Assembly (NCBI GenBank): GCA_051005875.1
Contig: JBPCIX010000022.1
Span: 3,537-67,536 of the forward strand
DNA from: Actinomycetota bacterium
GTDB taxonomy: Bacteria > Actinomycetota > CADDZG01 > JAHWKV01
DNA length: 64,000 nt
Direction: 5' to 3'
This document shows, piece after piece, positions 45,106 through 60,450 of this stretch. The notes below the pieces were generated by a model. It saw nothing but the letters and a program-made list of their open reading frames with translations. It was not told where the DNA came from and ran no database searches. Each line of letters opens with the position of its first letter. The stretch's first letter is position 1. The translations under genes were made by a program, and so were the position numbers.

Positions 45106-46229
45106 TTACCAACTTGGTCCCCCGCAGGGGTTGGGTAGCTCCGTTTCTGGCTTGCCATTTAGTCCTGCGTTTAGTCGTCCTGCGTTTAGTCGTCCTGGGT
45201 TTAGTCGTACTGGGTTTAGTCCTGGGCTTAGTCATTGGCCCGGCAACAATAAGCCTGGCTGCTTCTGCGGAGTCCGTTTCTAAGGATCTAGATTCCGTGG
45301 CTGCCGCTTACGGCAAATTGGAGACTCAGCTGGCCCAAACTGAGGCGCGCCAAACCAAACTTCAACAAGAGGACCAAAAGGCCAAAGCGGTTCTCTCCAG
45401 CAAGGGATCAGCGCTCCAGCAACGAGCTCGCTATATGTATAAAAATGGTGGTACCAGCTCCCTACTGGCGCGGCTGGTTACCTCGCCTAACATCTCGGTG
45501 TTTCTCAGGAAAGCTCATTATTTTTCGATTTTGGGCAGAAGCGATGCTCGGCTGGTCGAGGGCCTCACGATTAGCCAGGCAAGAGCTGATGAGATCCGAA
45601 ACGACCTCGCTTCAACCAAGGCGCGCCAAAGAAAAGTAGCGTCGGATCTCCGGTCTGAACGGGCACGGTTACAAGCAAAATACGGAGAAATCAAGCGACA
45701 GGAAGAGACCGCACGGCGGGCGGCTGAAGCGCGCCTTAAGGCGGGAAGGGTTACCAAGCCGGTGGAGCGCCGCCAGCTAGAGGCCACCGTCAAAGGAGAA
45801 ATCCCAACCAAGGTGGGGTCAGTCGGAAAATTCCCATCCTTTTCATTGCCAATTGCAGGTCCTACCGGGTTCACCGACACCTGGGGGGCCGCACGGTCGG
45901 GAGGAAGGCGGCATCAAGGCACCGATGTAATGGCCCCTTGCGGCGCCCGAGTAGTTGCGGTAACCAGCGGCTCAATCTCCAGGCTGATGACGGGCGGCGC
46001 CGGTGGGACCATGGTTTATCTAAAGGCAGGCAACGGGGACGAGTTTTTCTACGCTCATTTGCAGAGCACGGCAACAAGTCAAGGCAAAGGCGTTGCGGCG
46101 GGCGAACTCATCGGCTACAACGGCAACTCAGGCAATGCCCGAGGGGGGCCGTGCCACGTTCACTTTGAATGGCACCCCGGCGGCGGGGCCGCCGTTAACC
46201 CATACTCCTTGCTGGCCTCTGCCCGATAA
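45102..46229 (+). CDS. membrane-anchored coiled-coil M23 family metallopeptidase
   Basis: The start ATGA overlaps the kinase stop. The TM is LVLRLVVLRLVVLGLVVLGLVLGLVIG and a coiled coil follows. The M23 motifs are RRHQGTDV and GGPCHVHFEWHP. Confidence 0.85.
   Translation: MITNLVPRRGWVAPFLACHLVLRLVVLRLVVLGLVVLGLVLGLVIGPATISLAASAESVSKDLDSVAAAYGKLETQLAQTEARQTKLQQEDQKAKAVLSSKGSALQQRARYMYKNGGTSSLLARLVTSPNISVFLRKAHYFSILGRSDARLVEGLTISQARADEIRNDLASTKARQRKVASDLRSERARLQAKYGEIKRQEETARRAAEARLKAGRVTKPVERRQLEATVKGEIPTKVGSVGKFPSFSLPIAGPTGFTDTWGAARSGGRRHQGTDVMAPCGARVVAVTSGSISRLMTGGAGGTMVYLKAGNGDEFFYAHLQSTATSQGKGVAAGELIGYNGNSGNARGGPCHVHFEWHPGGGAAVNPYSLLASAR
45157..45238 (+). repeat. 12/15-nt tandem repeat (about 6 units) encoding the TM helix of the M23 peptidase
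   Basis: The units are ATTTAGTCCTGC, GTTTAGTCGTCCTGC, GTTTAGTCGTCCTGG, GTTTAGTCGTACTGG, GTTTAGTCCTGG and GCTTAGTCATTGG. Confidence 0.85.
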
Positions 46230-46740: not shown

Positions 46741-47133
46741 TCACGGCGGGACAAAGTCGAGCGGCAGCACCTTTACCCCGTAGTCTTCGAATATGTCGTC
46801 AACTGTCACCATGGTTAGGTCATCTAAGAGGGCTTGGGCGGCGAGTATGCGATCGAAAGGATCCGCGTGGTGGCGTGGTAAAAATCCAGCCTTCCAGGCC
46901 TGGCCGGCCGTGATGTCCCTCAGCTCGAATCCCTCTGCTTCGATTTCTTCGGGAAGGTTATCCACGACTTCGAGTCTGCCCAAGGCGGACTTGATCGCCG
47001 ACTCCCAAATGGTGGCAGCGGAGACGAAAATGGAGTTTTCGGGATCGGAGACTGCGCTTCGGGCCTTCTTGGGAAGCCGCCGGTCCTCCGATAGCCACCA
47101 CAGGGTTATGTGGGTGTCAAGCAGCAGATTCAG
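46741..47133 (-). CDS. vapC: VapC-like PIN toxin lacking a canonical start codon (possible pseudogene)
   Basis: Hand translation gives (CTG)NLLLDTHITLWWLSEDRRLPKKARSAVSDPENSIFVSAATIWESAIK...LPRHHADPFDRILAAQALLDDLTMVTVD. The frame is open from 47244, but it holds no ATG, GTG or TTG before 46983, so the LLLDTH catalytic Asp lies upstream of any canonical start. The position where ATGA/GTGA coupling is expected reads CTGA (47130-47133). Confidence 0.55.
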   Translation of the reverse strand: MNLLLDTHITLWWLSEDRRLPKKARSAVSDPENSIFVSAATIWESAIKSALGRLEVVDNLPEEIEAEGFELRDITAGQAWKAGFLPRHHADPFDRILAAQALLDDLTMVTVDDIFEDYGVKVLPLDFVPP

Positions 47134-47372
47134 CGCGGCAGCGCTCCGAATACCTCGGCGATTTCCGGAGGCAGGGGATCGTCGAAGCTGGCGGCCATAT
47201 GAATCTTGCCGGCCAGGCGCCCGGATTTGCGCCGCGCTTTGCTTTCAGGTGGAACCAGTCTGGCCACAGTCCTACCGGAGCGAGCGATCTGGATTTCAGA
47301 AGCCTCTCCGGATTCGAGGGCGGCCACCAGCTTGGAAAGGTTTGTCTTGGCATCGTGCATGTTCACCTTCAT
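47130..47372 (-). CDS. Phd/YefM family antitoxin
   Basis: 80 aa. MKVNMHDAKTNLSKLVAALESGEASEIQIARSGRTVARLVP is the typical Phd/YefM N-terminal fold. Confidence 0.8.
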   Translation of the reverse strand: MKVNMHDAKTNLSKLVAALESGEASEIQIARSGRTVARLVPPESKARRKSGRLAGKIHMAASFDDPLPPEIAEVFGALPR

Positions 47373-47452: not shown

Positions 47453-47608
47453 CGCGCAGCGGAGGAGGGCCGGATATTCCGCTGCGAACAGAGGGCTGTG
47501 TTCATCTATTTCATCAAAATGAGTGGCGATTCCCTGCAAGCTGAAGAACTCGCCCAGGAAACCTTCGTTCGCGCCTGCGCCGGTGACCCTTCGTTCGGTT
47601 TCATATGA
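47453..47608 (+). pseudogene. possible remnant of an ECF sigma-70 region 2 (truncated)
   Basis: Hand translation gives RAAEEGRIFRCEQRAVFIYFIKMSGDSLQAEELAQETFVRACAGDPSFGFI*. This resembles the ...F..L...H...V..Y...M.GD...AEDL.QETFLRA pattern of ECF sigma factors. It is bounded by stops after only ~51 codons and overlaps the 3' end of the convergent response regulator. Confidence 0.3.
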
Positions 47609-48257
47609 TCATGCCGCAATACCGGGCCAGCGAAAGCAGCTCCTGTTGGTTTCGGGTTGCAGTTTTTGTGAGCATATTGTGAACGTGGACTTTCAGCGTG
47701 CCGGGGGCTACGTGGAGCTCTTCGGCCAGTTCTTTCATCGGACGGCCGCTGCTGAGGAGCGACAGAATTTCAAGCTCCCGCTTGGTCAGGCCCTCAAGCC
47801 GTTTTCTGACCGCGACTTTTTCTTCGTAACGCTTGTCCACAGTTTGAACCAGCCGGGATAATTCCTCGGCAAAAACCGGCGATTCGCCCGCTTGGGCCCG
47901 CCGGATGGCCTCTACCAACCGTTCGACTTTCACGCTTTTGGGCAGAAATGCGACGGCGCCGGCGTCAAGGGCGTCCCGGACGTGGCCGGGCGAGTAAAAC
48001 CAAGAAAGCAGGATTATTTTTTGGCCGGGGGCATCCTGAAGGATGCGGCTGACGACCACAGGACCGTCCATTCCCTCGAGCCAAAAATCAAAAACGGCCA
48101 CATCGGGCCGAAGGATCGAGGCCATGTCCACGGCCTCCTGGGCGCCCTTGGGATGCTCGGCCAGGACCTCCAGGTCGTTGTACAAGCCCAGGGCAATTGA
48201 GAGCGCATCGGAGACAAGCACCTGAGAATCGGCCACAAGGACCCTGATCTTCGCCAT
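47601..48257 (-). CDS. orphan NarL/LuxR-family response regulator
   Basis: The receiver domain has VLVADS, VAVFDFWLEGMDG and LPKS. The C-terminal LuxR HTH is LTKRELEILSLLSSGRPMKELAEELHVAPGTLKVHVHNMLTK. The first acidic pair reads D-S rather than D-D. Confidence 0.85.
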   Translation of the reverse strand: MAKIRVLVADSQVLVSDALSIALGLYNDLEVLAEHPKGAQEAVDMASILRPDVAVFDFWLEGMDGPVVVSRILQDAPGQKIILLSWFYSPGHVRDALDAGAVAFLPKSVKVERLVEAIRRAQAGESPVFAEELSRLVQTVDKRYEEKVAVRKRLEGLTKRELEILSLLSSGRPMKELAEELHVAPGTLKVHVHNMLTKTATRNQQELLSLARYCGMII

Positions 48258-48382: not shown

Positions 48383-48616
48383 GTGGTCATGAAGTTCACC
48401 CGCCACGCTAAGAACCGGATCAGACTGATTGCCCGCGCCGACCCGGGGGTCACGCCTGAGGCCGTTTTGTTCGGGGTTGGCAGTGCTTCCGTGCTGAGGT
48501 ACGATGACAAGGGCAATAAAGTAGTTTTGGTCGTTTTGGAGGATCGGACCGTGACCGCAGTTGTGGACGTTAAGACGGAAACGATCATTACCATCTGGGC
48601 AAATGAGTCAAGTTAA
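48383..48616 (+). CDS. DUF4258-like small protein (putative toxin of a two-gene module)
   Basis: 77 aa. The (MV)MKFTRHAKNRIR opening is typical of DUF4258. It overlaps the downstream DUF2283 gene by 14 nt. Confidence 0.6.
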   Translation: MVMKFTRHAKNRIRLIARADPGVTPEAVLFGVGSASVLRYDDKGNKVVLVVLEDRTVTAVVDVKTETIITIWANESS

Positions 48617-48854
48617 AGCGTTTTATACCTACGACGCCGAGGCGGATGTCCTTTATGCCCTGCTGGTTCCAGAAGATGAGGCCCGCATTAGTAAGACGGT
48701 TGAACTGAGTCCCACGCTCCACGTTGATCTGGATGGCGGCGGCGGCGTGGTTGGGGTTGAGATCCTATATCCAGCCTCAAGACAAATCGATCTCGTTCCC
48801 CTAAAAGACCAATTCGGAGTCGAACTACGGCTGCCCTTCTCGTTTGCTGCATAA
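48603..48854 (+). CDS. DUF2283 domain protein (putative antitoxin partner)
   Basis: MSQVKAFYTYDAEADVLYALL...VHVDLDGGGGVVGVEILYPASRQ matches the YD.EAD.LYI......D.D..G.VVGIEIL pattern. The start is trimmed to the ATG at 48603. Confidence 0.7.
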   Translation: MSQVKAFYTYDAEADVLYALLVPEDEARISKTVELSPTLHVDLDGGGGVVGVEILYPASRQIDLVPLKDQFGVELRLPFSFAA

Positions 48855-48935
48855 GACCGCCGAAAACAAGACCCGGACCCGCTAGCAAGCCCCTAATTCC
48901 GTGCGGCAGGCCTAATTTCGGCTTTAGGGCCTGAT

Positions 48936-48955
48936 TTTCGGCCAATTGGCTGAAA
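48936..48955. promoter_or_regulatory. 20-bp near-perfect palindrome upstream of the surface-protein cluster
   Basis: TTTCGGCCAATTGGCTGAAA has one mismatched pair and the core GCCAATTGGC is a perfect palindrome. It is preceded by the direct repeats GGCCTAATTTCGGC and GGCCTGATTTTCGGC, and lies ~150 nt upstream of the ATG at 49104. Confidence 0.4.
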
Positions 48956-49103
48956 TTTATACCCTCAGGCATATTTACTTCCTCTTAATCCGGTGGTCCA
49001 ATGGCATCAGAGACTTTCACCGGCAAATTCGTGCCCCAGCGAGGCAGATTCTCCGGCAAAAGATCGAATAGACCATTTAGCCCACGAGTAAGGAGCGCAG
49101 GAC

Positions 49104-49688
49104 ATGAAAAAAGGCAAGAAAGCGGCGCCGGTAGTTGTTTTTATGATTATTGGAACCATCCTTGGAGCGGCCAGCCTGGCTTGGGCCTGCACTCCGGCCG
49201 CAGGGTTCGTGTCTCTCACTCAAGCCGGGCCGGTCGGCACTAAGTTCACCACCAGCACCACCGGTGTCGGCGTTTCGGAAATCCGCTGGAACAGCCTTGA
49301 CGGTCCGGTCGTAAGCACCCCCGCCGAAAGCTTTGACGGTCCGGTCGTAAGCACCCCCGCCGAAAGCCCGGGCTCGTTTGAAGTAACTGTGCCCCAGGTC
49401 GCTCCGGGTGTTTACTACCTGGTCTTCGCAACCGAAGACGCAGGCGTGGGCCGCATGGCCTTCGAGGTCACTCCCTCGGCCGGTGTTCGCTCGCCCGCTT
49501 CCGTGGTGCCCGCAGATCTTTGGAGCGGTTTCGCCTCGGGCTCACCGTCGGTAGCCCCGCAAGCCCAGGCGCCGGTATCGACCTCCAACGGCGCAGCCGC
49601 CGGCTTCGGCCTGTTGGGCGTAGGCGTGCTGATGATGTCGGGCCTTGCTCTGGTCGCCTTGCGCCGAAGCAAAGGCCGAGCGAGCTAG
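49104..49688 (+). CDS. small signal-peptide protein with AWA|CTP junction, beta-sandwich-like domain, C-terminal TM and basic tail (family copy 1)
   Basis: AAGGAG precedes the ATG. The N-terminus is MKKGKKAAPVVVFMIIGTILGAASLAWACTP and the C-terminus is NGAAAGFGLLGVGVLMMSGLALVALRRSKGRAS. It is a paralog of 62185-62838. Confidence 0.7.
   Translation: MKKGKKAAPVVVFMIIGTILGAASLAWACTPAAGFVSLTQAGPVGTKFTTSTTGVGVSEIRWNSLDGPVVSTPAESFDGPVVSTPAESPGSFEVTVPQVAPGVYYLVFATEDAGVGRMAFEVTPSAGVRSPASVVPADLWSGFASGSPSVAPQAQAPVSTSNGAAAGFGLLGVGVLMMSGLALVALRRSKGRAS
49296..49367 (+). repeat. 36-bp in-frame perfect tandem duplication inside the small surface protein gene
   Basis: [C/T]TTGACGGTCCGGTCGTAAGCACCCCCGCCGAAAGC occurs twice back to back. 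This encodes LDGPVVSTPAES then FDGPVVSTPAES. Confidence 0.9.
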
Positions 49689-49828
49689 ACGGCACTAGAG
49701 GGCTTGGGCCAAATCGGGCAACCAAGACTCGAAGAATCTCACAGGTTGGGCAAAAGGGCCCCCGTCCTGGCTCGACCCTTACCACCAACGCAAATCCACT
49801 AGTGAAGCGCGAGGGAGAACATAGGGCT

Positions 49829-52800
49829 TTGAAGACTCAAAACGCATTGCAAAGGGCGAAGGGCCCGGGGCAATCCGGATTCTCCAAAAGGGCCCGGCGC
49901 GTTGTGGCGCTCGGCGCCGCCTTCGCATTGGTGGTTCTTCCTTCGGCGGGTCCTGCGCTTGAGGGCGGCCAAGCCCCCACGCCTCGCGCCGCCAAGCCCG
50001 CAGCCCAAGCGAGCCAGCCCTCCTTGGCCCGACTAAAGGATGGCCCAAAGGCCCAAGCTAAGGCTCTTAAATCCTTCGGGAACCAGCCCCTTCGCTTTGA
50101 GCTAAACCGCGGCCAAGCCCCCAAGGAAGTCAAGTTCCTAGTCCGTACCCCAAAGCAGACCCTATTTCTTACATCGACCGAAATGATCCTGATGTCCACC
50201 GGCGGCGCGGATGAAACAGCTGCGCTCGGCAAAGGGCCGGCGCCCGTACGGATTAGCCTGGCGAAACGGGGCGCCAAGCCGAAAATCAGCGGCGTTTCGC
50301 GTCTGCCGGGCGTGAGCAACTATTTCCAGGGCCGGGACTCTAAAGCGTGGGTTACCGGGGCCCCGAGCTTCGCGAAGGTCCTTTATAAGGGCGTCTACCC
50401 CGGCATCGACCTGCTCTTTTACGAAAATCGCAAAGGCGGCGGCCTGGAGTACGACTTCCTGGTGAGCCCGGGTGCCAACCCCGCCTCGATCACTCAGTCG
50501 ATCTCGGGCGCCACCCGCCTCGGCCTTGACAAAGGCGAACTGGTGATCACCGCACCCGGCAATGAGATCCGGCAGTCGGCGCCTGTTATTTACCAGAAAA
50601 TCGACGGGAGGCGCCGGCTAATTAAGGGCGCGTACATGCTCGGCGATAGAAATAGTCTAGGGTTTCGGGTTGGGCGCTACGACGAATCAAGAACTCTCAT
50701 TATCGATCCTGTTCTGGCTTGGTCAACCCTCATGGGAGACAACGGATCCAGCGGCGATACGGGCAGCGCCTCCGACGGCTCTGGAACGGGGTCCAATCAC
50801 GGACCCCAAGTGGCTACGGATGCAAGCGGCAATGCCTACCTGGCTGGGTGGACTGCTAAATCTTTTCCGACGCAGGCCGCCTTCCAGCCCGTGCCGGCAG
50901 GCGGGTTCGTCGCCAAATTCGCCCCCAACGGGTCGCTCATCTACTCTACGTACCTTGGTGAGAGTAGTACTTTCCCTCACGACATTGCAGTTGACAGCGT
51001 CGGGAATGCATACATCGGCGGAACAACTAGTTGGTACGACTTTCCAACAACCGCCAACGCATTCCGCCCAGCCAGTCCTAGCACGATGCAACTTTCAAAA
51101 AAAGACGGTGGAGAACATGGTCCAGTGCTCGGCAGCGGCTCGCCTACAAGTTTCCTGAGTAAACTGGATATTGTTGGCCGGCTGGCCTATTCCACTTACC
51201 TCTGGCCAACCCAAGGAGACCGAGGAGGTGGCTCCGTAGACAACCTCTCGGCCGTGTCTGTAGCCGTTTCTGATGAAAAGAATGTCTTCGTAACTGGTCT
51301 GGATTTCACCGGGACCAGAAGCGGGGAAACCTGGGCGTTCCCCTACCGGGCTTGTCCTGGAGCGGACAATGAGAACGGCGGCCGCGCGGTTCCCTTCGTT
51401 GCGAAATTCGATACCGGCGTCGTCGCGGGTGTGCCTGCTGCGGCCCAGGGGTCGGTCGAAGGACCTCCCCCTTTGTTCCTCAAGTGTGGCTACGGTGGAC
51501 GTGACTTGGCCTTGCACGGTGGCTCTCTTTACGCTCTCGACGACGGCTTTGGGTCGAGAATTACGACTTCCGGCCCTCCGTACGAACCCAAAGGGGTCTG
51601 GAGACTCGGGACCGCCGACGGAAGCCCGGGCGCGCACTCAGACCTGACGGGCCTTGCAATTGCGACTTCGCCGACCGGCAGTCCTGACACCTCGGTCTAC
51701 GTGTCGAACAAAACCTCGATAACCAAGCTGGATGAGAATCTTGCGGCTGTAGAGCCCGCTTTGAGCCCTGGTTCGGGTGTGATACTAAATATTTCTGTCG
51801 ACTCCAAGGGGAAGCTTTACGCCGTTGGACAAGGACGTCTGGGCGATATTTCGACGACACCTGACGCCTACCAAAAGGAACTCCGGGGTGGCGTGCGGGA
51901 CGCCTTCGTTATGGTTTTCGATGCCGCGGGATCTAGGGTGTATTCAACATGGCTGGGGGGAAGCCCGTCTAAACCCCCGGCCCTGACGGACGCCGAGGTA
52001 CCGTGCGAACCCTTACTCACTTCTGGAGACGATCACGGAACCGGAGTCGGCGTGGACGGTCTGGGGAACTTTTTCGTGGTCGGCATCACAGTCTCTTACA
52101 ACTTTCCCGTGACCGCCAATGCGTTTCAAAAGGAAAGAAAGACTCGGTGCGTCGATGGCTCCCCGGGCGCCGATTCGTTTATGTCGGATGTGTTCGCGGC
52201 AAAATTCACCGACGCCCTGCCAAGTCTGACCGGGATAGCTCCCGAGCAAGGCTTTGTTTGTGAGCGCACCAAAGTGACCATTAAGGGTACGGGCTTTCCG
52301 GACACCCCCGCGGTCACATTTGGGGGCAGAGCAGCGGAGGTGATCGGCGTGACCCACGACCCGGACCCCGCCAAGGGCGACACCATTACCGTCATGAGCC
52401 CGACCATGGACGCCCCCGGCCCGGCGGAGGTAAAAGTGACCAGCGCTGGGGGGAACTCGTCTTCTACCGCCCTTCTGGGGAGTTTTCGATACCTTCCCGC
52501 CACGCCCCCGACAGTGCAGAGCGTTTCCCCGGTCAGTGGCAGCCCTCTCGGCGGGGAACCGGTGACGATCGCTGGAAGCTTTGCATGCGTCACGAAGATC
52601 GCCTTCGGGGATGTTCCACCGAAGGACTTTGTTTTGAGCGACGACCGAACCAAGATCACCGCCACCAGCCCGGAGCACGACCCAGGGCCGGTTCACGTTA
52701 CGGTCGCCACCGCCGCCGGAGTACCCGGTATTCCCCAATCGCTTAACGCCGACCTGTTCACCTTTGCGCCGCTGATCACGGCGGTCGATCCACCAACCGG

Positions 52801-53536
52801 GCCCACTTTGGGCGCGACCAAAGTAAGGATTGCCGGCAAAGGGTTCTTAAGGGCTACCAAGGCTGTGGCGTTCGGTGGACTGCCGGCGCCTTTCACCGTG
52901 GCGTCGGACACCGAGATCGAAGCCACCAGCCCTGCTCACCCGGCGGGCGATGTATCGGTGGCGGTCAGTACCACCGAGAATTTGCAGGCAGTCCCCAAAG
53001 TGGCCGGGGCAAACTTGTTCACTTACCTGCTTCCGAAGGTCGCAGTCCCCCTCGATGAGGACCCGGGCAAGGGAGGGACCGATGGCGGCAAGGCCATTGT
53101 TCAGCCGGTCATTCCCGGCGGTGGGACTACGTCAGCGGCGCCGGTCACCCAACCCGCCCAGGCGCCTAATCCCCAGCCTCTTGGCAATGCCCAGCCGGGC
53201 TCAATTGCTCAGCAAAATCCCTCGGCCGTCTTGAGCCCAGGCGCGGCGCCGAATCCCGGCTTTGCCTTAGCGCCGGGCGGCGCAGGCTCTCCGCTTGCTA
53301 ATCCACGAACTGCGTCCGCGGGGGTTGCGGTTGGCGGCTATCAAGACGAACCCAGTGCCGCTCCGCGCCTCGCCATGGTTGCTCTGAATGACCGGGAAGT
53401 GACGCGGGCATGCTTCATGGGCGGATCGACCCTGCTGCTCCTGCTGTTCGGGTTCTCTTTGTCATTTGCCAGACGACGACCTCTGGCGGGACATGCAGAC
53501 GCAACCGAAGCCTGCCCTGCGCCCCAGATCGCATAG
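49829..53536 (+). CDS. giant surface protein: SBBP-type beta-propeller repeats + 3-4 IPT/TIG domains + C-terminal TM anchor
   Basis: The N-terminal PLRFELNRGQAPKEVKFLVRTPKQTLFLTSTE box is typical of SBBP-repeat proteins. Repeats such as DASGNAYLAGWT, DSVGNAYIGGTTSWYDFPTTANAF and DGLGNFFVVGITVSYNFPVTANAFQ follow. IPT/TIG-like units start at ITGIAPEQG, VQSVSPVSGSPLGG and ITAVDPPTGPTLG. The tail is GGSTLLLLLFGFSLSFARRRP. The start is set to TTG 49829 (GAGGGAG 10 nt upstream). The track ORF from 49520 overlaps the previous gene. Confidence 0.75.
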   Translation: MKTQNALQRAKGPGQSGFSKRARRVVALGAAFALVVLPSAGPALEGGQAPTPRAAKPAAQASQPSLARLKDGPKAQAKALKSFGNQPLRFELNRGQAPKEVKFLVRTPKQTLFLTSTEMILMSTGGADETAALGKGPAPVRISLAKRGAKPKISGVSRLPGVSNYFQGRDSKAWVTGAPSFAKVLYKGVYPGIDLLFYENRKGGGLEYDFLVSPGANPASITQSISGATRLGLDKGELVITAPGNEIRQSAPVIYQKIDGRRRLIKGAYMLGDRNSLGFRVGRYDESRTLIIDPVLAWSTLMGDNGSSGDTGSASDGSGTGSNHGPQVATDASGNAYLAGWTAKSFPTQAAFQPVPAGGFVAKFAPNGSLIYSTYLGESSTFPHDIAVDSVGNAYIGGTTSWYDFPTTANAFRPASPSTMQLSKKDGGEHGPVLGSGSPTSFLSKLDIVGRLAYSTYLWPTQGDRGGGSVDNLSAVSVAVSDEKNVFVTGLDFTGTRSGETWAFPYRACPGADNENGGRAVPFVAKFDTGVVAGVPAAAQGSVEGPPPLFLKCGYGGRDLALHGGSLYALDDGFGSRITTSGPPYEPKGVWRLGTADGSPGAHSDLTGLAIATSPTGSPDTSVYVSNKTSITKLDENLAAVEPALSPGSGVILNISVDSKGKLYAVGQGRLGDISTTPDAYQKELRGGVRDAFVMVFDAAGSRVYSTWLGGSPSKPPALTDAEVPCEPLLTSGDDHGTGVGVDGLGNFFVVGITVSYNFPVTANAFQKERKTRCVDGSPGADSFMSDVFAAKFTDALPSLTGIAPEQGFVCERTKVTIKGTGFPDTPAVTFGGRAAEVIGVTHDPDPAKGDTITVMSPTMDAPGPAEVKVTSAGGNSSSTALLGSFRYLPATPPTVQSVSPVSGSPLGGEPVTIAGSFACVTKIAFGDVPPKDFVLSDDRTKITATSPEHDPGPVHVTVATAAGVPGIPQSLNADLFTFAPLITAVDPPTGPTLGATKVRIAGKGFLRATKAVAFGGLPAPFTVASDTEIEATSPAHPAGDVSVAVSTTENLQAVPKVAGANLFTYLLPKVAVPLDEDPGKGGTDGGKAIVQPVIPGGGTTSAAPVTQPAQAPNPQPLGNAQPGSIAQQNPSAVLSPGAAPNPGFALAPGGAGSPLANPRTASAGVAVGGYQDEPSAAPRLAMVALNDREVTRACFMGGSTLLLLLFGFSLSFARRRPLAGHADATEACPAPQIA

Positions 53537-53542
53537 GCGCCC

Positions 53543-56332
53543 TTGAGGAACAAACTTCGCTCTGGTCGGCGAGGCTGGGCCAAAAAGCTTCTAGCAACGT
53601 CGGCCCTCGGCGCCTTTGCCCTGACGAGTCTTGCGCCGCAGGCAAACGGCGCGCTGGGTAACCGCTCTCCGGAACCCGGCACGGTGGACACCGTTGCCGG
53701 TCCGGGCTACTGCTTGGGCCGCTCTGTCCTGGACCCTAAATCGCTAGGCATCAGGTCTCTCGCCGTGAGCCCCGAGGGGCAGCTTGTCGTCGACGCCGGC
53801 CCCCCGAACTCAGGTCTTTTCGGCGTGGTACCTGCTGAGGGCTACGGCGTTTATCGTGCCAGGCCCAAAACCGTGTATTCCCAGGCTCAGTTGCTCCAGA
53901 AAAATCGAGACAACCTGTATAAGCCCTGGGCTCTTCGAGGCGGAAGCGCGCCGGGCCTCGGCCTCATGCGCTTGCCGAGAATGGACGCCAAGCAGGTTGC
54001 AACTGCCGATGAACGTGCCATCCTGATGCCGCATATTTACGATTCAGGCCTCCGCCGAGATTACTCTCCAGACGCAAATTTCACCCCTTTTCTTGGAAAC
54101 ACCGATGGCGCGCCACGTTCGCTCGGAGACGGCGCCCTTGCGGCCAAGGCCGGCTTCACGGCGATTCAGGCTCTTGCGATGGACGAACAACTCAACATTT
54201 ATGTGGCCGACCAGGCCGGAACTAAAGCCAAGAATGCCCAAATACGGTTTGTTAATAACAACTTCATACCCAAAGCGGTCCCGTCGGCCATCATCCTATA
54301 TGCGGGCACTTCTCAAGAGCGAGCCGTTAAACCAGGCGCTATCGACACCGTCGCCGGTAAAGGGCGCAAGCCAAATGCCGGAGATGACGGCCCCGCCCTT
54401 CAAGCAGGCATTGGAACCACCTCATCTATGGTGGTCGCCGGGAAACGGCTCTACATCGCCTCATACATAAAAGGGGGTGCCGGACGTCGGGGGGACGCCC
54501 GTGTGAGGATGGTGAACCTGGGGTCCGAGCAGCTCGAGGCTCACGGCCTTGTCATCAAGCCGGGGACCATAGCCACCGTTGCCGGCGGGCATGGCACCGG
54601 TTTCGCCGGTGACGGGGGCCCGGCCCGGAGAGGCTCCTTCTCACAAATAACGGGAATGGCGGCCGACGCCGATGGGAACCTTTACCTGGCCGACCGCGAC
54701 CACCACCGGATCCGCAGGGTCGACTCGAAGGGCAGGATCACGACCGTTGCCGGTACCGGCGGCGCCGGTCCGCGCGACGGAGGATTCAACGGCAACAATT
54801 TGCCGGCTGTAAAGGCCAAGCTCAACCGGCCGTTTGACGTGAAAACCGGGCCGCAAGGACGCCTGTACATCACCGATGACATGAACGGTCAGATCCGATA
54901 CATCGACTCGGGAGGAATAATTCACGCCGCCTTTGGCAGCGGAATTGGCCTGACGTGGACCTGTCGGCCTCAAAAATCGTTGCCCGCCTCTGGGCCGGAA
55001 CGAGGCGCAGAGGCAAAGCGGGACCAAGTAAGGCAGGGACCACTCGGGAGCGTGGACCTTCCAACCCGGTCTGAACTGCCGACTAACTTCGGGGGCCCCT
55101 CAAGCCTGGCTACTGGAGGTCCGAGGGGCGTTTACGTCGCCACGCCGGAGTTGGGCCAGGTGAAGCTCATCGAGCCATCGGGCGTTGTCAGCACCGTGGC
55201 TGGGGACGGCCGGGATGTGTGCCCGCCCGCCAAAACGTGCCCGCCTTCGGGCGGCGACGGAGGCCCTGCTCTGTCGGCCCGCCTAGACGCACCGGCCCTG
55301 GTGGCGGCGAGCCCCCGCAAGGGTTTCTACGTATTCGACAGGAAAGAGAACCGGATTCGCTTCGTGAACACTAGCTTGAAGCCCCTGCGGATCAACGGCG
55401 TCAAAGTCGCTCCCGGCGCAATTGCGGGCATCGCCGGGGCCCAGGGGGACGCGCCCGGTGCCACCACTGCGCCCGGTGCGCCCGGTGCGCCCGGTGCGCC
55501 TGATCCCAAGAAGGCCGTCTCCGCGGCCGTGCCGGCCGTCAGTTCGCTTGCTGCTGATCGCGCAGGCAACCTCTTCATAGCCGAGCCGGACAGCAAACGA
55601 ATTAGGCGAATTGATAGCGCCGGCGCCATCAGCACATTTATCGGCGAAGGTGGTGACTTCAACGTGGGATCGTCTGGCTGCTGCACGTCTCCTTCGGTGG
55701 TCGCCCCTGGCCCAAGAGGGAGCCTCTACATTTACGACAAAGTCGCCCTGAAGGTCTTTCTCGCCAACAGGGGGACTTCTCAAGTGACGGTGCACGGCCA
55801 GAAGGTTGCCGCAGGCGCCATTGCCCCGGTCGCCGGCAACGGTAAGACGGGATTTGGCGGCGATAACGGACCGGCCCTGACAGGCTCCTTCACGGGGCCT
55901 GAAGCTATGACTACCGATGGGAAGGGCAATCTTTATATCGTCGATCGGCCGGAGGCAACTGTTCGTAAGGTCGACTCTAAGGGTGTCATCACTACCGTCG
56001 CGGGGGCCGGCGGCACCCTAAGCATCTCCGCCGCTTTGGGCGCCGGCGGGTTCAACGGCGACGGGTTAAAGGGCCAGCTGACCGCCTTCAGCAATCCCTC
56101 GGGGATCGCCCTCGACTCCTGCGGCAATCTGCTGATAGCCGACTCCAACAACGACCGTGTCCGGCGGCTTAACTTGAGGCTACCGTGCGGGGTCTCGGCC
56201 GGCCAGACTTCCGGCGCCACTTCGTCCTCGGGGTTGCCGCCTGCACTGCTCATCGGCGGCCCAGCCGTCCTCGTGCTTGCTGGAGTGATCTATCTGCTCG
56301 TTAGGCGGACCCGCTCTTCAGACTCTGAGTAA
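53543..56332 (+). CDS. NHL-repeat beta-propeller surface protein with C-terminal TM anchor
   Basis: The signal is KKLLATSALGAFALTSLAPQANG. There are many NHL-like units (LYLADRDHHRIRRVDSKGRITTVAGTG, LNRPFDVKTGPQGRLYITDDMNGQIRYID, LLIADSNNDRVRRLNL). The tail is LLIGGPAVLVLAGVIYLLVRRTRSSDSE. It starts 7 nt after the SBBP gene stop. Confidence 0.8.
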   Translation: MRNKLRSGRRGWAKKLLATSALGAFALTSLAPQANGALGNRSPEPGTVDTVAGPGYCLGRSVLDPKSLGIRSLAVSPEGQLVVDAGPPNSGLFGVVPAEGYGVYRARPKTVYSQAQLLQKNRDNLYKPWALRGGSAPGLGLMRLPRMDAKQVATADERAILMPHIYDSGLRRDYSPDANFTPFLGNTDGAPRSLGDGALAAKAGFTAIQALAMDEQLNIYVADQAGTKAKNAQIRFVNNNFIPKAVPSAIILYAGTSQERAVKPGAIDTVAGKGRKPNAGDDGPALQAGIGTTSSMVVAGKRLYIASYIKGGAGRRGDARVRMVNLGSEQLEAHGLVIKPGTIATVAGGHGTGFAGDGGPARRGSFSQITGMAADADGNLYLADRDHHRIRRVDSKGRITTVAGTGGAGPRDGGFNGNNLPAVKAKLNRPFDVKTGPQGRLYITDDMNGQIRYIDSGGIIHAAFGSGIGLTWTCRPQKSLPASGPERGAEAKRDQVRQGPLGSVDLPTRSELPTNFGGPSSLATGGPRGVYVATPELGQVKLIEPSGVVSTVAGDGRDVCPPAKTCPPSGGDGGPALSARLDAPALVAASPRKGFYVFDRKENRIRFVNTSLKPLRINGVKVAPGAIAGIAGAQGDAPGATTAPGAPGAPGAPDPKKAVSAAVPAVSSLAADRAGNLFIAEPDSKRIRRIDSAGAISTFIGEGGDFNVGSSGCCTSPSVVAPGPRGSLYIYDKVALKVFLANRGTSQVTVHGQKVAAGAIAPVAGNGKTGFGGDNGPALTGSFTGPEAMTTDGKGNLYIVDRPEATVRKVDSKGVITTVAGAGGTLSISAALGAGGFNGDGLKGQLTAFSNPSGIALDSCGNLLIADSNNDRVRRLNLRLPCGVSAGQTSGATSSSGLPPALLIGGPAVLVLAGVIYLLVRRTRSSDSE

Positions 56333-56547: not shown

Positions 56548-56760
56548 ATGCGAACTGACTTCAAGGCAGTAGTCAAAAGGGACGACAAGTGGTGGATCGG
56601 ATGGGTCGAGGAAATTTCGGGAGTGAATTCGCAAGGTGAAACTCGCGACGAGCTCATGGAGAATCTGAAATCTGCTTTGTTCGAAGCCCTTGAAATGAAT
56701 AGGGAGTCAGCCCGCAGCGCCGCGGGCGAGGAGTTTGAAGAAGTAACAATCTCGACTTGA
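56548..56760 (+). CDS. HicB-like (UPF0150) antitoxin, no recognisable HicA partner
   Basis: 70 aa. FKAVVKRDDKWWIGWVEEISGVNSQGETRDELMENLKSALFEALE fits the small HicB fold pattern. Confidence 0.65.
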   Translation: MRTDFKAVVKRDDKWWIGWVEEISGVNSQGETRDELMENLKSALFEALEMNRESARSAAGEEFEEVTIST

Positions 56761-56787
56761 AACGCCGGTCGTCCCAGGAGGTTAACA

Positions 56788-57222
56788 ATGACAAAGCTTC
56801 GGCCTTATCTGAATTTTGAAGGAGACGCTGAGGAAGCATTCAACTTCTACAGGTCCGTGTTCGGCGGCGAGTTCGTGTCGTTTTTCCGGTTCAAGGATTT
56901 TCCGATGGAAGGCGTGACCGTACCCGTCGAGGATGAAGGCAAGATGGTGCACATCAGCTTGGAAATCGCCGACGACCAAATCTTGATGGCCAGCGACGCA
57001 CTTCCGGCTCTCGGACAAAAGCTGGTTCAAGGCAACAACGCCCACATCTCGGTTCACCCAGAAAGCCGGGAAGAGGCCGACAGAATCTTCAGCGGTCTCT
57101 CAGACGGCGGCACCGTCGAGATGCCGATCGGCGACCAGCCGTGGGGCGATTATTACGGAAGCTTCAAGGACAGGTTCGGCGTCCAGTGGATGGTTAATTA
57201 CAGCCCGCCGCGGGAACCTTAG
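56788..57222 (+). CDS. VOC/glyoxalase-superfamily protein, PhnB-like
   Basis: AGGAGG RBS. LRPYLNFEGDAEEAFNFYRSVFGGEF...MVHISLEI.DQILMASD...MPIGDQPWGDYYGSFKDRFGVQWMVNY is the classic PhnB-like pattern. Confidence 0.8.
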   Translation: MTKLRPYLNFEGDAEEAFNFYRSVFGGEFVSFFRFKDFPMEGVTVPVEDEGKMVHISLEIADDQILMASDALPALGQKLVQGNNAHISVHPESREEADRIFSGLSDGGTVEMPIGDQPWGDYYGSFKDRFGVQWMVNYSPPREP

Positions 57223-57311
57223 TAGGAGTCTTAAGGCCCCGAGGCCGACGTCGCGGGCGCGGAGGAACGCCTGGGTGGCAGCCGCCCGGCTATGTGCTAC
57301 CATTGTGCGTC

Positions 57312-57602
57312 ATGGGCCAAACTAAGTCCGTCGGAATCAGGCAGCTCAGACAGAACCTCAGCGTCTACATCAGCAGGGTGCGTAAGGGAGAGCGGTATCA
57401 GGTCACCGAAAGAGGAGTTCCGGTAGCCGTTCTGGGCCCCATCTCTGGATCCCACGGCACCCTGGACCGCCTGGCGGCACAGGGCCTCGTTCAGCGGGCA
57501 TCCAGGGATCCTGCCTCTTTAGGCCCCCCGCCTTCTCCTCACAAGAAGCCTAAGATGTCGGCCAGCAAGGCCCTGGCCCAGCTTCGCGCTGATGACCGAT
57601 GA
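57312..57602 (+). CDS. Phd/YefM family antitoxin
   Basis: MGQTKSVGIRQLRQNLSVYISRVRKGERYQVTERGVPVAVLGP. It overlaps the vapC start by 11 nt. Confidence 0.8.
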   Translation: MGQTKSVGIRQLRQNLSVYISRVRKGERYQVTERGVPVAVLGPISGSHGTLDRLAAQGLVQRASRDPASLGPPPSPHKKPKMSASKALAQLRADDR

Positions 57603-58008
57603 AGATGGGGCCCAGGCTCTCACGTACCTGGATTCGTCTGCGATCGTCAAGCTCATTCTTCCGGAACCCGAAAGCGGGGCTCTGTCGGAGTTTCTAGCGG
57701 GCAGAAACCTGGTAAGCAGCCGGCTGGGTGAAATTGAAAGCCGCAGAGCCATAATGCTGACGGGGAGCGACGAGGAAGTGACGGCACGCGAGCAAGAGGT
57801 GCTCGACAGCATTGACCTTATCGAGATATCCCCCACGATTGCGAGTGATGCGGCTGGACTTGAGCCGCCCGCACTGCGAACTCTCGACGCCATCCATCTG
57901 GCAACGGCTCTGGCGCTCGGAGAGGACCTCGACTGTGTGGTTGTTTACGATCACCGGCTTGCTGCCGCTACGCGGGAAAGGGCCCTCAACGTCCAGGGCC
58001 CGCAATAG
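57592..58008 (+). CDS. vapC: VapC PIN-domain toxin
   Basis: It has YLDSSAIVKL (first acidic residue), a central E, and LRTLDAIHLATAL. It ends in RALNVQGPQ. Confidence 0.8.
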   Translation: MTDEDGAQALTYLDSSAIVKLILPEPESGALSEFLAGRNLVSSRLGEIESRRAIMLTGSDEEVTAREQEVLDSIDLIEISPTIASDAAGLEPPALRTLDAIHLATALALGEDLDCVVVYDHRLAAATRERALNVQGPQ

Positions 58009-58023
58009 AAGAATGAAACTTTG

Positions 58024-58446
58024 TCAGCTCGTATCTTCTAGTTCGCGCAGCAGTCGCAGGAAACCGGCGGGGTAGATAACCTCGACATCCTCATTCTCGA
58101 GACCCGCGGCATGAAAGTGGCGGTCCCGGCTGACAAGGTACATCGCTTCAGCCCTGACCGCCAGGTCAGCAAGATAGTCGTCATCCAGATCGCCGGGGAC
58201 CCGCCGCGGCGGGTCGGCGTTGTCCGGATAACCCAATCCTTCCGTTTCAAGCTCTTCGGCGGCCTGATTTATCTCCTCATGGGTAATTCCATATCGCCCA
58301 GCAATTCGGGGCCGCCCCATCACCTCGATGAACTCCCTGATCAGCTCCGGGCAGGTCGCGAGCTCAAAGACTCCTTCCCGCCATAGATTGAGAAGCTCAT
58401 GGGCGGCACCGGAGTGCGCGAGGGTTCCGGCGACCAACGCATCCAC
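58024..58446 (-). CDS. PIN-family toxin (TIGR00305-like), N-terminus compromised
   Basis: The track start is GTG 58446 (MDALVAGTLAHSGAAHELLNLWREGVFELATCPELIREF). The expected N-terminal strand IKVAID lies upstream, between the RHH stop (58468-58470, same reading frame) and the GTG. Only an ATA codon (58464) is available there. Confidence 0.6.
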   Translation of the reverse strand: MDALVAGTLAHSGAAHELLNLWREGVFELATCPELIREFIEVMGRPRIAGRYGITHEEINQAAEELETEGLGYPDNADPPRRVPGDLDDDYLADLAVRAEAMYLVSRDRHFHAAGLENEDVEVIYPAGFLRLLRELEDTS

Positions 58447-58467
58447 GTCGATTGCAACTTTTATCGG

Positions 58468-58707
58468 TCATTTCCGGCGAGGGGTGCGCCGGGCCTTTCG
58501 TACCTCTTCCAGTGCCTCTCCGGCAGCCTGAGCGGCAGGCTTTTCTTCGAGCGACGCCTTTGCTCTGATTCGCTCGAGAGGATCCAGGCCTTGCCGTAGA
58601 GCTTCTTCAAGTACGTCCGACTGAGAGCGGCCCATTCTTGCCGCCTTCACCCGAACTCGCCGGAGCAAATCCTCCTCCACGAGAAGAGTCGTCTTGAATC
58701 TTGCCAT
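58468..58707 (-). CDS. ribbon-helix-helix (CopG/VapB-like) antitoxin
   Basis: Trimmed to MARFKTTLLVEEDLLRRVRVKAARMGRSQSDVLEEALRQGL, the RHH pattern. The upstream part of the 164-aa track ORF looks non-coding. Confidence 0.7.
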   Translation of the reverse strand: MARFKTTLLVEEDLLRRVRVKAARMGRSQSDVLEEALRQGLDPLERIRAKASLEEKPAAQAAGEALEEVRKARRTPRRK

Positions 58708-58822
58708 AAAACCATAATACCGTAAAGACATACGACAGGCGAAGATACGGCGCACGAACCTAGCCGCAGTTAGAGCCGTGATGATTGGGGAAGGAGGGAT
58801 GATGACGGAAGTTGAATGGACC

Positions 58823-59233
58823 TTACGCCTTGGTTCCCCAAACGGTCCAACCCAGAAAGTTTGCAGCTTTTGATTGTCTGACGTCGTAGGTGATAAATGG
58901 CAAGAGTCCACCGCCGGCTTGATCGGCAGCCCCGAGGTGAAGAGCGTCGAGGGTACGCACACCGGTTCTTTCGGCTATTTCCGCCGCGCTTTCGCATACG
59001 GCCTTTGTGAGTGTGACTTTCTTAACTGCTGCCCAATCCCGGGAGAATTGATCTCGCGCTTTGGCGTAGTCCTTTCCTTTTAACCCTAGAGCCAGGTTGC
59101 GTCTAACTTCGACTTCGGTGTGTCGCCCGGAAATCCAATCGGTGTCCTTTTTCAGGAGCTTAAGGCAAGCTGTAAAGTCCGCCTCCCGGAAATAGATCTT
59201 GAGGAGCGCGCTGGAATCTACATAAACGCTCAC
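58823..59233 (-). CDS. vapC: VapC PIN-domain toxin
   Basis: It has MSVYVDSSALLKIY and RTLDALHLGAA. The GTGA start-stop overlap with the upstream antitoxin is intact. Confidence 0.8.
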   Translation of the reverse strand: MSVYVDSSALLKIYFREADFTACLKLLKKDTDWISGRHTEVEVRRNLALGLKGKDYAKARDQFSRDWAAVKKVTLTKAVCESAAEIAERTGVRTLDALHLGAADQAGGGLLPFITYDVRQSKAANFLGWTVWGTKA

Positions 59234-59511
59234 TCTGCCCGGTCTTCTCGCAGGAGGTCTTCCACTGTTATCGATGCCCGGAAGCCTTTGTGGTCGGAAA
59301 GGTCAAGTTTCCCGGCGCCCGGGGAAATCCACCCTTGACGAATGCCTCGCCGGACAAGGTCGTCGGCAGTTTCGGGCGGCACGGAAGGGTCGGCCGGACC
59401 GATTAAGGCCTTTGGCCGTCCCCGGCTCGTTACGGTAATGACTTCGCCATCCTCAGCTCGATCCAGATACTCGGAAAGCCGGGCCTTTAAGGTTCTGACG
59501 GGCACCTCCAT
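59230..59511 (-). CDS. Phd/YefM-type antitoxin
   Basis: MEVPVRTLKARLSEYLDRAEDGEVITVTSRGRPKALIGP. Confidence 0.75.
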   Translation of the reverse strand: MEVPVRTLKARLSEYLDRAEDGEVITVTSRGRPKALIGPADPSVPPETADDLVRRGIRQGWISPGAGKLDLSDHKGFRASITVEDLLREDRAE

Positions 59512-59623
59512 GTAGTCACACTAACACAATAGATGACCACATTGGGGAACAGGCAATTTGCTGAGGGGCGAAGACGGCGTCGAAGGCTGCTTTGGGTTAG
59601 TCAGACTCTGGTAGGGTTTCGGT

Positions 59624-59848
59624 ATGACCAGCAAACGTAAAATCTCCATTTCGCTCGACCCCGAATTGGTGGACGAACTCGAGGCCCAGGGTGTTCCTCT
59701 GTCCAGTCAGATCAACCGTGTCCTGAGCGACGAACTGGCGCGGCGCCGTCGAAGCAGGCTACTTAAGGACCTCCTCGGGGAGATGGATCACAGGGTTGGG
59801 AAGGTCGACGAAGCCCTGATCGAAAAGTACGAGGAGTTGCTCAGGTGA
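59624..59848 (+). CDS. RHH-type antitoxin
   Basis: MTSKRKISISLDPELVDELEAQGVPLSSQINRVLSDEL. It has a GTGA overlap with the downstream PIN gene. Confidence 0.7.
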   Translation: MTSKRKISISLDPELVDELEAQGVPLSSQINRVLSDELARRRRSRLLKDLLGEMDHRVGKVDEALIEKYEELLR

Positions 59849-60264
59849 CCGGTGGCCTGGTGCTCGATGCGGAGGCGATTTCCGCGCTGGCGCGGGAGAA
59901 CTCCCCCGGCAACCAGGAGGTCCGGGCGGCGATGACCGCTGCTGCGCGGCTGGGGAAGGACGTGATAGTTGCGACCGTCACACTGGCGGAACTTTACCGG
60001 GGCCACGGCCACAATCAGATCGTCGACTCGTGCCTGTCCCGGGAGACTGGAATTGCTACCCGTGACACGGACAAAGAGTTTGCACGCCTGGTCGGCGGAC
60101 TGCTCGCCGGGGCCGGCATGGAATCGGACAACCTTGCCGACGCTCATGTTGTAGCTGCTGCCCTGGAGGCCGGACGGTGTGTCGTACTGACCGGCGACCG
60201 GGACGACATCCAGGCTCTTGCAGCGCCGTACCCGAACATCATCATCCGGGCGCTTCCAACCTGA
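59845..60264 (+). CDS. PIN-domain toxin
   Basis: It has LVLDAEAISALA, TVTLAELYRG and a DAHVVAAALEAG..VLTGDRDD pattern. Confidence 0.75.
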   Translation: MTGGLVLDAEAISALARENSPGNQEVRAAMTAAARLGKDVIVATVTLAELYRGHGHNQIVDSCLSRETGIATRDTDKEFARLVGGLLAGAGMESDNLADAHVVAAALEAGRCVVLTGDRDDIQALAAPYPNIIIRALPT

Positions 60265-60310
60265 AGCCGGCGGGGCCTTGCCCGTCCTTCGCCCCTCGAA
60301 TGAATTCTTG

Positions 60311-60447
60311 CCGCTCCTCAACGACTCGATCGCCGATACCGGTAACGACCGTGTTCGCCGCCTTAACCTGGCCCCGCCATGCGGCGGTTCATCGGCAGCG
60401 GCGGCGTCGGCCGGTCCCAAGTCGTCGGGCCGGCTCGTCCCTCTAAA
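60311..60447 (+). pseudogene. C-terminal fragment of an NHL-repeat protein (truncated paralog of 53543-56332)
   Basis: PLLNDSIADTGNDRVRRLNLAPPCGGSSAAAASAGPKSSG aligns with LLIADSNNDRVRRLNLRLPCGVSAGQTSGATSSSG of the intact gene. I estimate nucleotide identity at roughly three quarters over the core by eye. The TM anchor is missing, and similarity stops a few nt before the 26-bp repeat. Confidence 0.7.
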
Positions 60448-60450
60448 TAA

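Follow-up and report, generated by a model that had tools for sequence, protein, structure and literature searches.

A large unannotated family of small Ig-like membrane proteins with a significant, non-obligate link to propeller genes in Actinomycetota

Results and Discussion

Three co-oriented genes for predicted membrane-anchored ectoproteins

The window analyzed here, a stretch of 64,000 nucleotides (nt) from contig JBPCIX010000022.1 of an Actinomycetota bacterium (assembly GCA_051005875.1), contains three co-oriented genes encoding a small immunoglobulin (Ig)-like protein (small1), a giant ectoprotein with SBBP propeller repeats and an NHL-repeat ectoprotein, and further downstream a second small gene (small2) followed by a Kelch gene (Table 1). 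All three proteins of the cluster begin with a signal-like hydrophobic segment, and their C-terminal part consists of a stalk of low complexity, a hydrophobic helix and a group of Arg/Lys residues; export and a terminal membrane helix with an Arg/Lys tail had been proposed in a first-pass annotation of the window. The open reading frames (ORFs) are uninterrupted, with zero frameshifts. The start codon ATG of small1 is preceded at 8 nt by the ribosome binding site (RBS) AAGGAG. The encoded protein consists of a hydrophobic N-terminal segment reaching to LAWA-C29, a beta-sandwich at about residues 35-123, a disordered stalk with the sequence DLWSGF at 136-141, a Gly-rich transmembrane (TM) helix at about 163-187 and the tail RRSKGR. 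The small2 protein has the same architecture and is 33% identical to small1 (E 5e-16).

The reading frame of the giant is open from position 49520 and its likely start is TTG at 49829 (with GAGGGAG 11 nt upstream) or GTG at 49802, which gives a protein of 1235-1244 amino acids (aa). Its stop codon is separated from the start of the NHL gene by 6 nt, in essential agreement with the 7 nt counted previously. Pfam models scoring above threshold were DUF7948 (residues 90-295, 4e-55, 187.5 bits), SBBP (54.2 bits) and TIG (86.9 bits in three stretches, to about residue 1066) for the giant and TEN_NHL (101.5 bits) and NHL (67.7 bits) for the NHL protein; domain calls of NCBIfam agree with this, and the SBBP/TIG and NHL identities given in the first-pass annotation are thereby borne out. 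For the Kelch gene, the part of which in contig L014 is the same DNA as the window, Kelch_6 (69 bits), Kelch_4 (63.6 bits) and Kelch_1 (62 bits) were likewise above threshold. Within their Pfam families, the giant, NHL and Kelch proteins are unremarkable.

Over the 3' part of the giant gene, the NHL gene and small2, the window agrees with a Logan assembly made independently from the same sample, the NHL protein being identical at 882 of 882 residues, and because the NHL gene and small2 are both reproduced, a frameshift artefact is excluded for these two. Inside small1 there is a 36-nt tandem duplication that is missing in every homologue of the family alignment described below. As L014, the only independent Logan contig recovered for this region, begins about 80 nt downstream of small1, the duplication is neither confirmed nor contradicted by it and may be either a recent microduplication or an assembly artefact.

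Table 1. Positions in the window of the genes and sequence features described in the text
Feature	Position	Strand	Description
Gene pair	46741-47372		Resembles PIN/Phd by eye only
NarL/LuxR-type response regulator	47601-48257	-	Response_reg and GerE (Pfam match); divergent from the cluster
DUF2283 gene	48561-48854		
23-nt block AAATTTATACCCTCAGGCATATT	48953-48975	+	Some 130 nt ahead of the small gene; putative promoter or regulator site
small1	49104-49688	+	ORF, 194 aa; Ig-like single-domain small protein
36-nt tandem duplication in small1	49293-49364	+	Copies 97% identical; encodes (L/F)DGPVVSTPAES twice, in a beta-sandwich loop
Giant ectoprotein	49829-53536	+	1235 aa; signal peptide, DUF7948, SBBP propeller repeats, TIG, Pro/Ala/Gly-rich stalk, TM helix, RRR tail
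NHL-repeat ectoprotein	53543-56332	+	929 aa, TTG start; signal peptide, NHL/TEN_NHL repeats, Ser/Gly stalk, TM helix, RRTR tail
UPF0150/DUF7387 HicB-like ORF	56548-56760		
Phd/PIN pair	57312-58008		
PIN_3	58024-58446		
Phd/PIN pair	58823-59511		
CcdA-like gene and 139-aa partner	59624-60264		
Remnant of NHL-protein C-terminus (IADTGNDRVRRLNLAPPC)	60329-60382	+	18 codons; 14/18 residues shared with the NHL gene end (E 1e-4, 120-aa query)
Fic	60686-61840		
small2	62185-62838	+	217 aa; small1 paralogue; AAWA-C26, PDLWRGF, TM helix, RSRRRR
Kelch-repeat protein	62855-64000	+	Signal peptide; partial, runs past the window end; starts 16 nt after small2

The small proteins belong to a large family with an invariant cysteine

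Word-indexed protein searches returned 41 relatives for small1 and 3 for small2. The profile of an alignment of 35 members (A1) was scored against 1.84 billion cluster representatives, of which 3782 were matched at E ≤ 1e-3, 1843 at E ≤ 1e-10 and 245 at E ≤ 1e-30, the top matches being mostly full-length proteins of 170-210 aa. Named sources are metagenome-assembled genomes (MAGs) of Acidimicrobiales or other Actinomycetota, and the proteins are always called 'hypothetical'. Neither small1 nor small2 matches a Pfam or NCBIfam model, which answers the question raised in the first-pass annotation as to whether the small protein is unassigned. Over the 35 aligned members only scattered matches to beta-sandwich models below the Pfam thresholds were obtained, among them CBM_6 in 5/35 and Big_6 in 3/35.

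The hallmarks of the family were counted over 173 short members. The N-terminal hydrophobic segment ends with A-W-A-C in 148 of them and with A-F-A-C in 14, and since the exceptions (ALAC, ASGC, ASAC, AWSC, VWAC) also retain the Cys, this residue is present in 173/173. Among the 167 motif-bearing members, position -2 is occupied by Trp in 152 and by Phe or Tyr in 15, and in 162 the Cys is the sole one of the mature protein. A C-terminal hydrophobic helix with a basic tail was found in 171/173. The invariant columns of A1 are W27, A28, C29, W62, P97, G102, G167 and G174, the two last-named Gly residues lying in the TM helix; as structural invariant residues, W62, P97, P101-G102 and R117 can be named.

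The stalk carries the motif [DE]-L-W-x-G-[FL], which is complete in 39/173 members, while 99 more keep a Trp in the linker and some of the remaining ones show variants with Phe for Trp (DLFTTGL in P0022, DAFNVGL in P0013). In long-stalk variants (278-312 aa) the spacing of the motif to the TM helix is preserved, not that to the Ig domain, and the sequence ADLWSGFASG is common to small1 and to P0034/P0036 despite an overall identity of about 33%.

Giant proteins of 1000-7300 aa (P0045-P0052, P0054, P0063, P0064), one of which comes from a Thermomicrobiales MAG, contain the beta-sandwich of the family (profile positions of about 30-120) in 6-56 tandem copies. Five of these tandem giants (P0047, P0050, P0051, P0052 and P0054; 1000-1500 aa) were scanned and gave only sub-threshold and inconsistent Ig-like Pfam models. 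The repeats look like an undescribed Ig-like type.

Small genes and propeller genes are associated but not obligatorily so

The related-locus search, for which a subset of the alignment was used, returned three genome loci and two metagenome loci, and the neighborhood sample is hence small, consisting of 21 family genes with readable context. Eleven of these touch a propeller gene (SBBP/DUF7948, Kelch, NHL or BNR), including all three paralogues of this genome. Propeller genes account for 11/36 immediate neighbors vs 6/98 other annotated genes (Fisher p = 5e-4, an optimistic value given the small and partly phylogenetically redundant sample), and the six non-adjacent propeller genes all belong to the same clusters. 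The association spans paralogues just 30-36% identical and four propeller families.

As noted in the first-pass annotation, the family of small1 recurs at 62185, where small2 is followed after 16 nt by the Kelch gene, and the pairing with different propeller families is indeed reiterated, being found three times in this genome (SBBP, Kelch, Kelch) and in other metagenomes as well. The third paralogue of the same MAG (P0024, in L005) is followed by a Kelch gene. In L003, a small gene precedes a DUF7948 gene whose product, compared over the N-terminus, is 61% identical to the giant of the window, and in L004 a small gene is followed by genes for a 2267-aa giant with Big_1, Kelch and Calx domains and for a 928-aa NHL protein with 54% full-length identity to that of the window. 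Other arrangements are an SBBP/DUF7948 gene followed by a long-stalk member (L007/L008), a BNR gene followed by a small gene (L016), a small gene convergent with a BNR gene, itself accompanied by a second BNR gene and a DUF7948/SBBP/TIG gene (L017), and the order NHL, Kelch/TIG, small, with a second member divergent from the NHL gene (L018). The trio of small gene, gene for a TIG-bearing giant and NHL gene is therefore seen in the same order in L004, with the middle gene swapped, and in another order in L018. Ten of the propeller neighbors (from the window, L001, L004, L016, L017 and L018) end in a TM helix with an Arg tail and are, like the small protein, anchored in type-I fashion.

No propeller gene is adjacent in the remaining loci. 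In L001/L002 two FtsH-like genes are followed by a small gene and a TrmB gene, with a BNR and a DUF7948 gene 3-5 genes further on; in L009 a small gene is followed by a gene for a double-AAA M41 protease and in L015 an FtsH-like gene is divergent from the small gene. Both L011 and L012 show a TrmB-like gene between two small genes. A small gene precedes a gene for a 149-aa secreted protein with an AWAC signal end and no Pfam match in L006 and an ORF without Pfam match near the contig end in L013, whereas in L010 it follows a GT2 gene at the contig end. The protease and regulator genes of this second type of context lie at L001:5081-9917, L009:702-3128, L015:1765-3708 (-) and L011:1327-2475, and the protein with a double AAA and an M41 domain, of about 936 aa, is unusual.

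Where the DLWxGF motif is complete, the family gene adjoins a propeller gene in 8/8 cases vs 3/13 for members without it (p = 8e-4, uncorrected for relatedness). These results indicate that the association of small and propeller genes is real, that it is not obligatory, and that the order of the genes is not fixed. Of the systematic adjacency that had been suspected, the enrichment stands, but roughly every second family gene examined lacks a propeller neighbor and the order varies. An obligate two-component system of small protein and propeller was therefore discarded.

The domain of the small protein resembles a divergent IPT/TIG sandwich

In the AlphaFold2 (AF2) model of small1 (mean predicted local distance difference test score, pLDDT, 74.8), a helix at residues 8-28 is followed by an eight-strand beta-sandwich at 35-123 with blocks reaching pLDDT 91, a low-confidence linker and a C-terminal helix at 163-193. 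The model and the sequence agree with the earlier description of a LAWA|C signal end, one beta-sandwich-like domain and a stalk. A Foldseek search against the PDB returned generic Ig-like folds only (E of about 1e-3, TM-scores of 0.3-0.57) and no specific family. The best PDB sequence match of the profile is the IPT/TIG-type domain D of a cyclodextrin glucanotransferase (CGTase; residues 495-582, E 0.015), and hhalign of the family profile against the TIG region of the giant itself gave a weak E of 0.07. The Pfam TIG threshold of 20.9 bits is not reached, small1 and small2 showing no match and one of the 35 members a match at E 0.083.

Because of the AF2 sandwich, the generic Ig-like Foldseek matches and the match to CGTase domain D, we label the domain as a probable divergent IPT/TIG-like (E-set) sandwich lying below the Pfam TIG threshold. 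With IPT/TIG domains (PF01833, for example CGTase domain D) it appears to share the Ig-like sandwich and the strand pattern 'G..G..VTV.G..F', 'V.(I)RW/F', 'vtvP...pGvY.v.v' and 'F.V'. It differs from them, apart from the score, in that it forms a single domain on a TM anchor of its own and has the invariant Cys of AWAC at its N-terminal edge.

The processing site and the C-terminal anchors differ from known systems

The uncharged run before the Cys of the family comprises 20-22 residues (median 21), and in the canonical lipoproteins used for comparison, four from the window and one from L007, it comprises 13-17 residues and leads to an L-(A/S)-(A/G)-C box and a Ser/Gly-rich linker. As the run is longer than in canonical lipoproteins with their ordinary lipobox and linker, the AWAC site would best fit cleavage by signal peptidase I (SPase I) at AXA|C; it may alternatively be an unusual lipobox or an uncleaved interfacial Trp-Cys. 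Bacterial lipoproteins processed by Lgt and Lsp are similar in having an invariant Cys right after the hydrophobic segment and small residues at -1 and -3, and the rare family variants ASGC, ASAC and ALAC resemble ordinary lipoboxes. In contrast to such lipoproteins, the family has Trp or Phe at -2, which is outside the usual lipobox, its fold begins directly after the Cys without a Ser/Gly linker, and there is a second anchor, the C-terminal TM helix. Membership among canonical lipoproteins, as defined by [LVI][ASTVI][GAS]C with a short hydrophobic region, was thus rejected, only the Cys at +1 being in agreement with it.

The combination of stalk, hydrophobic helix and Arg/Lys cluster in the small and the propeller proteins is reminiscent of the sorting signals of sortase (LPXTG/LAXTG), exosortase and rhombosortase substrates, but no conserved signature precedes the helix and no NCBIfam sorting-signal model is matched. 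Neither an LPXTG-type motif nor a Pfam or NCBIfam anchor model was found in small1, small2, the giant or the NHL protein, and a loose LPXTG-like pattern occurs in only 14/173 family members. Similarly, no NCBIfam model for PEP-CTERM, GlyGly-CTERM, exosortase or rhombosortase systems matched the five proteins, ScyF being hit only through its NHL part. The C-termini of the small and propeller proteins look like plain TM anchors, and the idea that they are substrates of sortase or exosortase was rejected for want of a motif.

A check for intermolecular disulfides by the Cys parity of the partner ectodomains gave no consistent pattern. DUF7948 giants contain a Cys at or in the C-terminal TM helix, namely residue 1195 (RACFMGG) in the window and residue 1109 (GAGACFAM) in the giant at L017:5553-8969 (-).

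Small secreted proteins that are not part of the family but have a similar signal end adjoin family members at L001:11782-12366, L018:688-1260 (-) and L006:5120-5569. Two of them are homologues of 190-194 aa with AYAC-T and the third, of 149 aa, has AWAC-T; none shows a Pfam match or a C-terminal TM helix. The shared A[WY]AC ends hint at a lineage-specific processing or lipidation signal.

Surface genes diverge faster than the adjoining regulator gene

A gene for a NarL/LuxR response regulator adjoins the small gene in four loci (window, L003, L005 and L017), the products being 43-85% identical; compared with the regulator of the window, those of L003, L005 and L017 are 85%, 43% and 44% identical, respectively. 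Between the window and L003 the small protein (55%) and the giant (61%) are less conserved than the regulator (85%), and this faster divergence of the surface genes fits surface exposure, because exposed proteins evolve faster in this way. As L004 keeps the small and the NHL gene with a different giant between them, a cassette-like turnover is suggested.

The block AAATTTATACCCTCAGGCATATT is 100% conserved over 19-23 nt in the window, L003 (9880-9898) and L004 (867-885), whereas the intergenic flanks diverge and the proteins of the three loci are only 55-61% identical. It occurs once in the window, where 0 occurrences are expected by chance, and is a candidate for a promoter or regulator site. 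On the minus strand, the block also reads as the RBS and ATG of a 94-aa ORF (48688-48972) that overlaps the DUF2283 gene. A promoter and terminator scan gave no excess over the shuffled expectation.

Possible role of the small proteins and competing explanations

Our best reading, in which confidence and doubt are about equally balanced, is that the genes form a fast-evolving, co-regulated and lineage-specific envelope surface-protein cluster of an uncultured, Acidimicrobiia-like member of the Actinomycetota, the small protein being a partner of the propellers close to the membrane. It would be bitopic, with one divergent IPT/TIG-like Ig domain that a flexible stalk lifts about 40 residues above the membrane, and would be anchored by a Gly-zipper TM helix and an Arg-rich cytoplasmic tail, and processing at A-W-A|C would leave a single Cys at or beside the new N-terminus. 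The propeller proteins encoded downstream (SBBP+TIG, NHL, Kelch) would be very large type-I membrane-anchored ectoproteins, with TIG domains and long Pro/Ala/Gly stalks carrying the propellers, as ligand-binding or enzymatic heads, through the wall. The genes of the cluster may be co-transcribed and are probably controlled by the adjoining NarL/LuxR response regulator.

From the adjacency, the shared mode of anchoring and the conserved stalk motif, we infer that the small protein may act as an adaptor or partner of the propellers and might serve in their organization, retention or assembly. Docking could occur by packing between TM helices involving the Gly-zipper or by the juxtamembrane DLWxGF motif. 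Since Kelch, NHL and WD40 propellers usually recognize short linear peptides, DLWxGF is a specific candidate for such docking. A covalent role is suggested for the single Cys that is invariant at the processing site, which could form a link to a lipid or an intermolecular disulfide. The nearest functional analogy, and an analogy only, may be the MmpS proteins of the mycobacterial MmpL transporters, in which, as in the present case, a small anchored Ig-like sandwich protein of Actinomycetota is encoded upstream of a very large membrane partner. MmpS, however, has an N-terminal anchor only and its partners are resistance-nodulation-division (RND) transporters, whereas the putative partners here are propeller ectoproteins; no sequence similarity was detected.

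Several observations weigh against a partnership. About half of the family genes have no propeller gene beside them, and where there is one it can lie upstream, downstream or in convergent orientation. The p-values of the neighborhood analysis overstate independence, because n = 21 and some of the loci are relatives of one another. The small proteins of L003 and L004, although 74% identical, pair with different giants and thus show no sign of partner specificity. The profile of the family gave nothing significant in hmmsearch and hhalign against the Ig/TIG regions of the partners, and none of the five tandem-repeat giants scanned contains a fusion of the family domain to a propeller. The family with its 3782 representatives, to which the tandem giants have to be added, is not rare, and within one Acidimicrobiales subgroup there is a second conserved context, consisting of an FtsH-like AAA-AAA-M41 protease and a TrmB/DUF7436 regulator.

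The strongest of the competing explanations, somewhat less probable in our judgment than the partnership but to be taken seriously, is that the small protein is an independent Ig-like envelope protein or lipoprotein that merely shares surface-protein islands and a regulator with the propellers. The incomplete adjacency and variable gene order would be expected from such co-location, as would the exchange of the middle giant between otherwise orthologous loci, the presence in these islands of further small secreted proteins whose signals likewise end in A[WY]AC, and the toxin-antitoxin-rich surroundings with an NHL gene remnant, both of which suggest frequent rearrangement. On the other hand, the association persists across paralogues as distant as those described above and across all the propeller families, none of the three copies in this genome departs from it, only 16-140 nt separate the genes where the small one comes first, and the DLWxGF motif tracks the propeller adjacency. 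That the main role of the family is instead connected with FtsH-like AAA proteases in membrane-protein quality control or signaling, as substrate, adaptor or regulator, with the propeller adjacency being secondary, appears unlikely. FtsH-like or double-AAA M41 genes do adjoin members directly in L001/L002, L009 and L015, and TrmB/DUF7436 regulators do so in L001 and L011, but this context is absent from the window, L003-L005, L007-L008 and L016-L018, and its restriction to one Acidimicrobiales subgroup may reflect inherited synteny; moreover, the cytoplasmic tail has only about 5-12 residues, which is short for FtsH engagement.

The family could further be compared with the metallochaperones CopC and YcnI, its N-terminal Cys binding copper for radical copper oxidases of the Kelch type (galactose-oxidase-like) encoded next door. 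The layout of signal peptide, beta-sandwich of about 100 aa and C-terminal TM helix is YcnI-like, the residue under suspicion is the first of the mature protein, CopC is among the Foldseek matches (rank 33), and the partial Kelch neighbor weakly matches the NCBIfam model GlxA at 50.6 bits. This score, however, is far below the equivalog cutoff of 800, the majority of the partners, being SBBP, NHL or BNR proteins, are not copper enzymes, the fold similarity is generic only, and the N-terminal residue is a Cys, not the His of a histidine brace. Since no His, Met or Asp ligands are conserved in A1, where the invariant residues are structural apart from the single Cys, a copper-chaperone role is rated very low; membership in CopC or YcnI was rejected on the same grounds and for the lack of a Pfam CopC or YcnI match. 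The least credible explanation is that the module arose from frameshifts or chimeric contigs. It could appeal to the duplication in small1, unique to this sequence, and to the fact that the exact small1 sequence is on record from NCBI only, but the ORFs are uninterrupted, the same gene order is found in L003 and L004, and an assembly artefact is rejected because of the agreement with the independent assembly and with homologues that are full-length and match in size (928 vs 929 aa for the NHL protein).

In summary of the weighing, the small protein lies outside every curated family and belongs to a large unannotated family of Ig-like membrane proteins with a significant, non-obligate propeller link, and it does not demonstrably represent a new system. 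A more far-reaching form of the partnership, which we regard as rather improbable, would make the AWAC small proteins dedicated membrane partners of TM-anchored propeller ectoproteins in an undescribed envelope-display system of the Acidimicrobiia type, the propeller or its TM helix docking onto DLWxGF and the Gly-zipper helix of the small protein, which would be tethered at the Cys by an unusual Trp-containing lipobox or an intermolecular disulfide. The literature search yielded nothing relevant on DUF7948, SBBP surface proteins, propeller surface proteins of Acidimicrobiia or such clusters. Soils and waters harbor large numbers of Acidimicrobiia and related uncultured Actinomycetota, but the construction and decoration of their envelope have, to our knowledge, hardly been described. 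A family with thousands of members and without a curated model, with an invariant Cys at its processing site and a link to propellers, offers an entry point to this envelope biology; it could define how these bacteria anchor or organize ligand-binding ectoproteins and could reveal a non-canonical lipobox or processing signal. Should mere co-location be true, a new domain family at the DUF level and a marker for fast-evolving surface-protein islands would still be obtained.

Surroundings of the cluster

Among 30 ORFs of the window that were scanned outside the cluster, including all ORFs longer than 400 aa, no propeller was found; these ORFs are housekeeping genes (PolA, GltB, DnaE, UvrB, RpsA; biosynthesis of His, Trp and NAD) or unassigned. 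An Rfam scan of the window detected two tRNAs only, none of them near the cluster.

A HAMP/PAS histidine kinase gene (43819-45105) overlaps by 4 nt the gene for a coiled-coil M23 peptidase (45102-46229) a few kb upstream of the response regulator, and an M23 peptidase gene is also present upstream in L003; a link of the kinase/M23 pair to envelope remodeling is possible.

The surroundings of the cluster are dense in toxin-antitoxin and related genes (46741-47372, 48561-48854 and 56548-61840). Between two such genes upstream of small2 lies the 18-codon remnant of an NHL-protein C-terminus, whose similarity to the NHL gene end points to an earlier copy of the cluster that has decayed.

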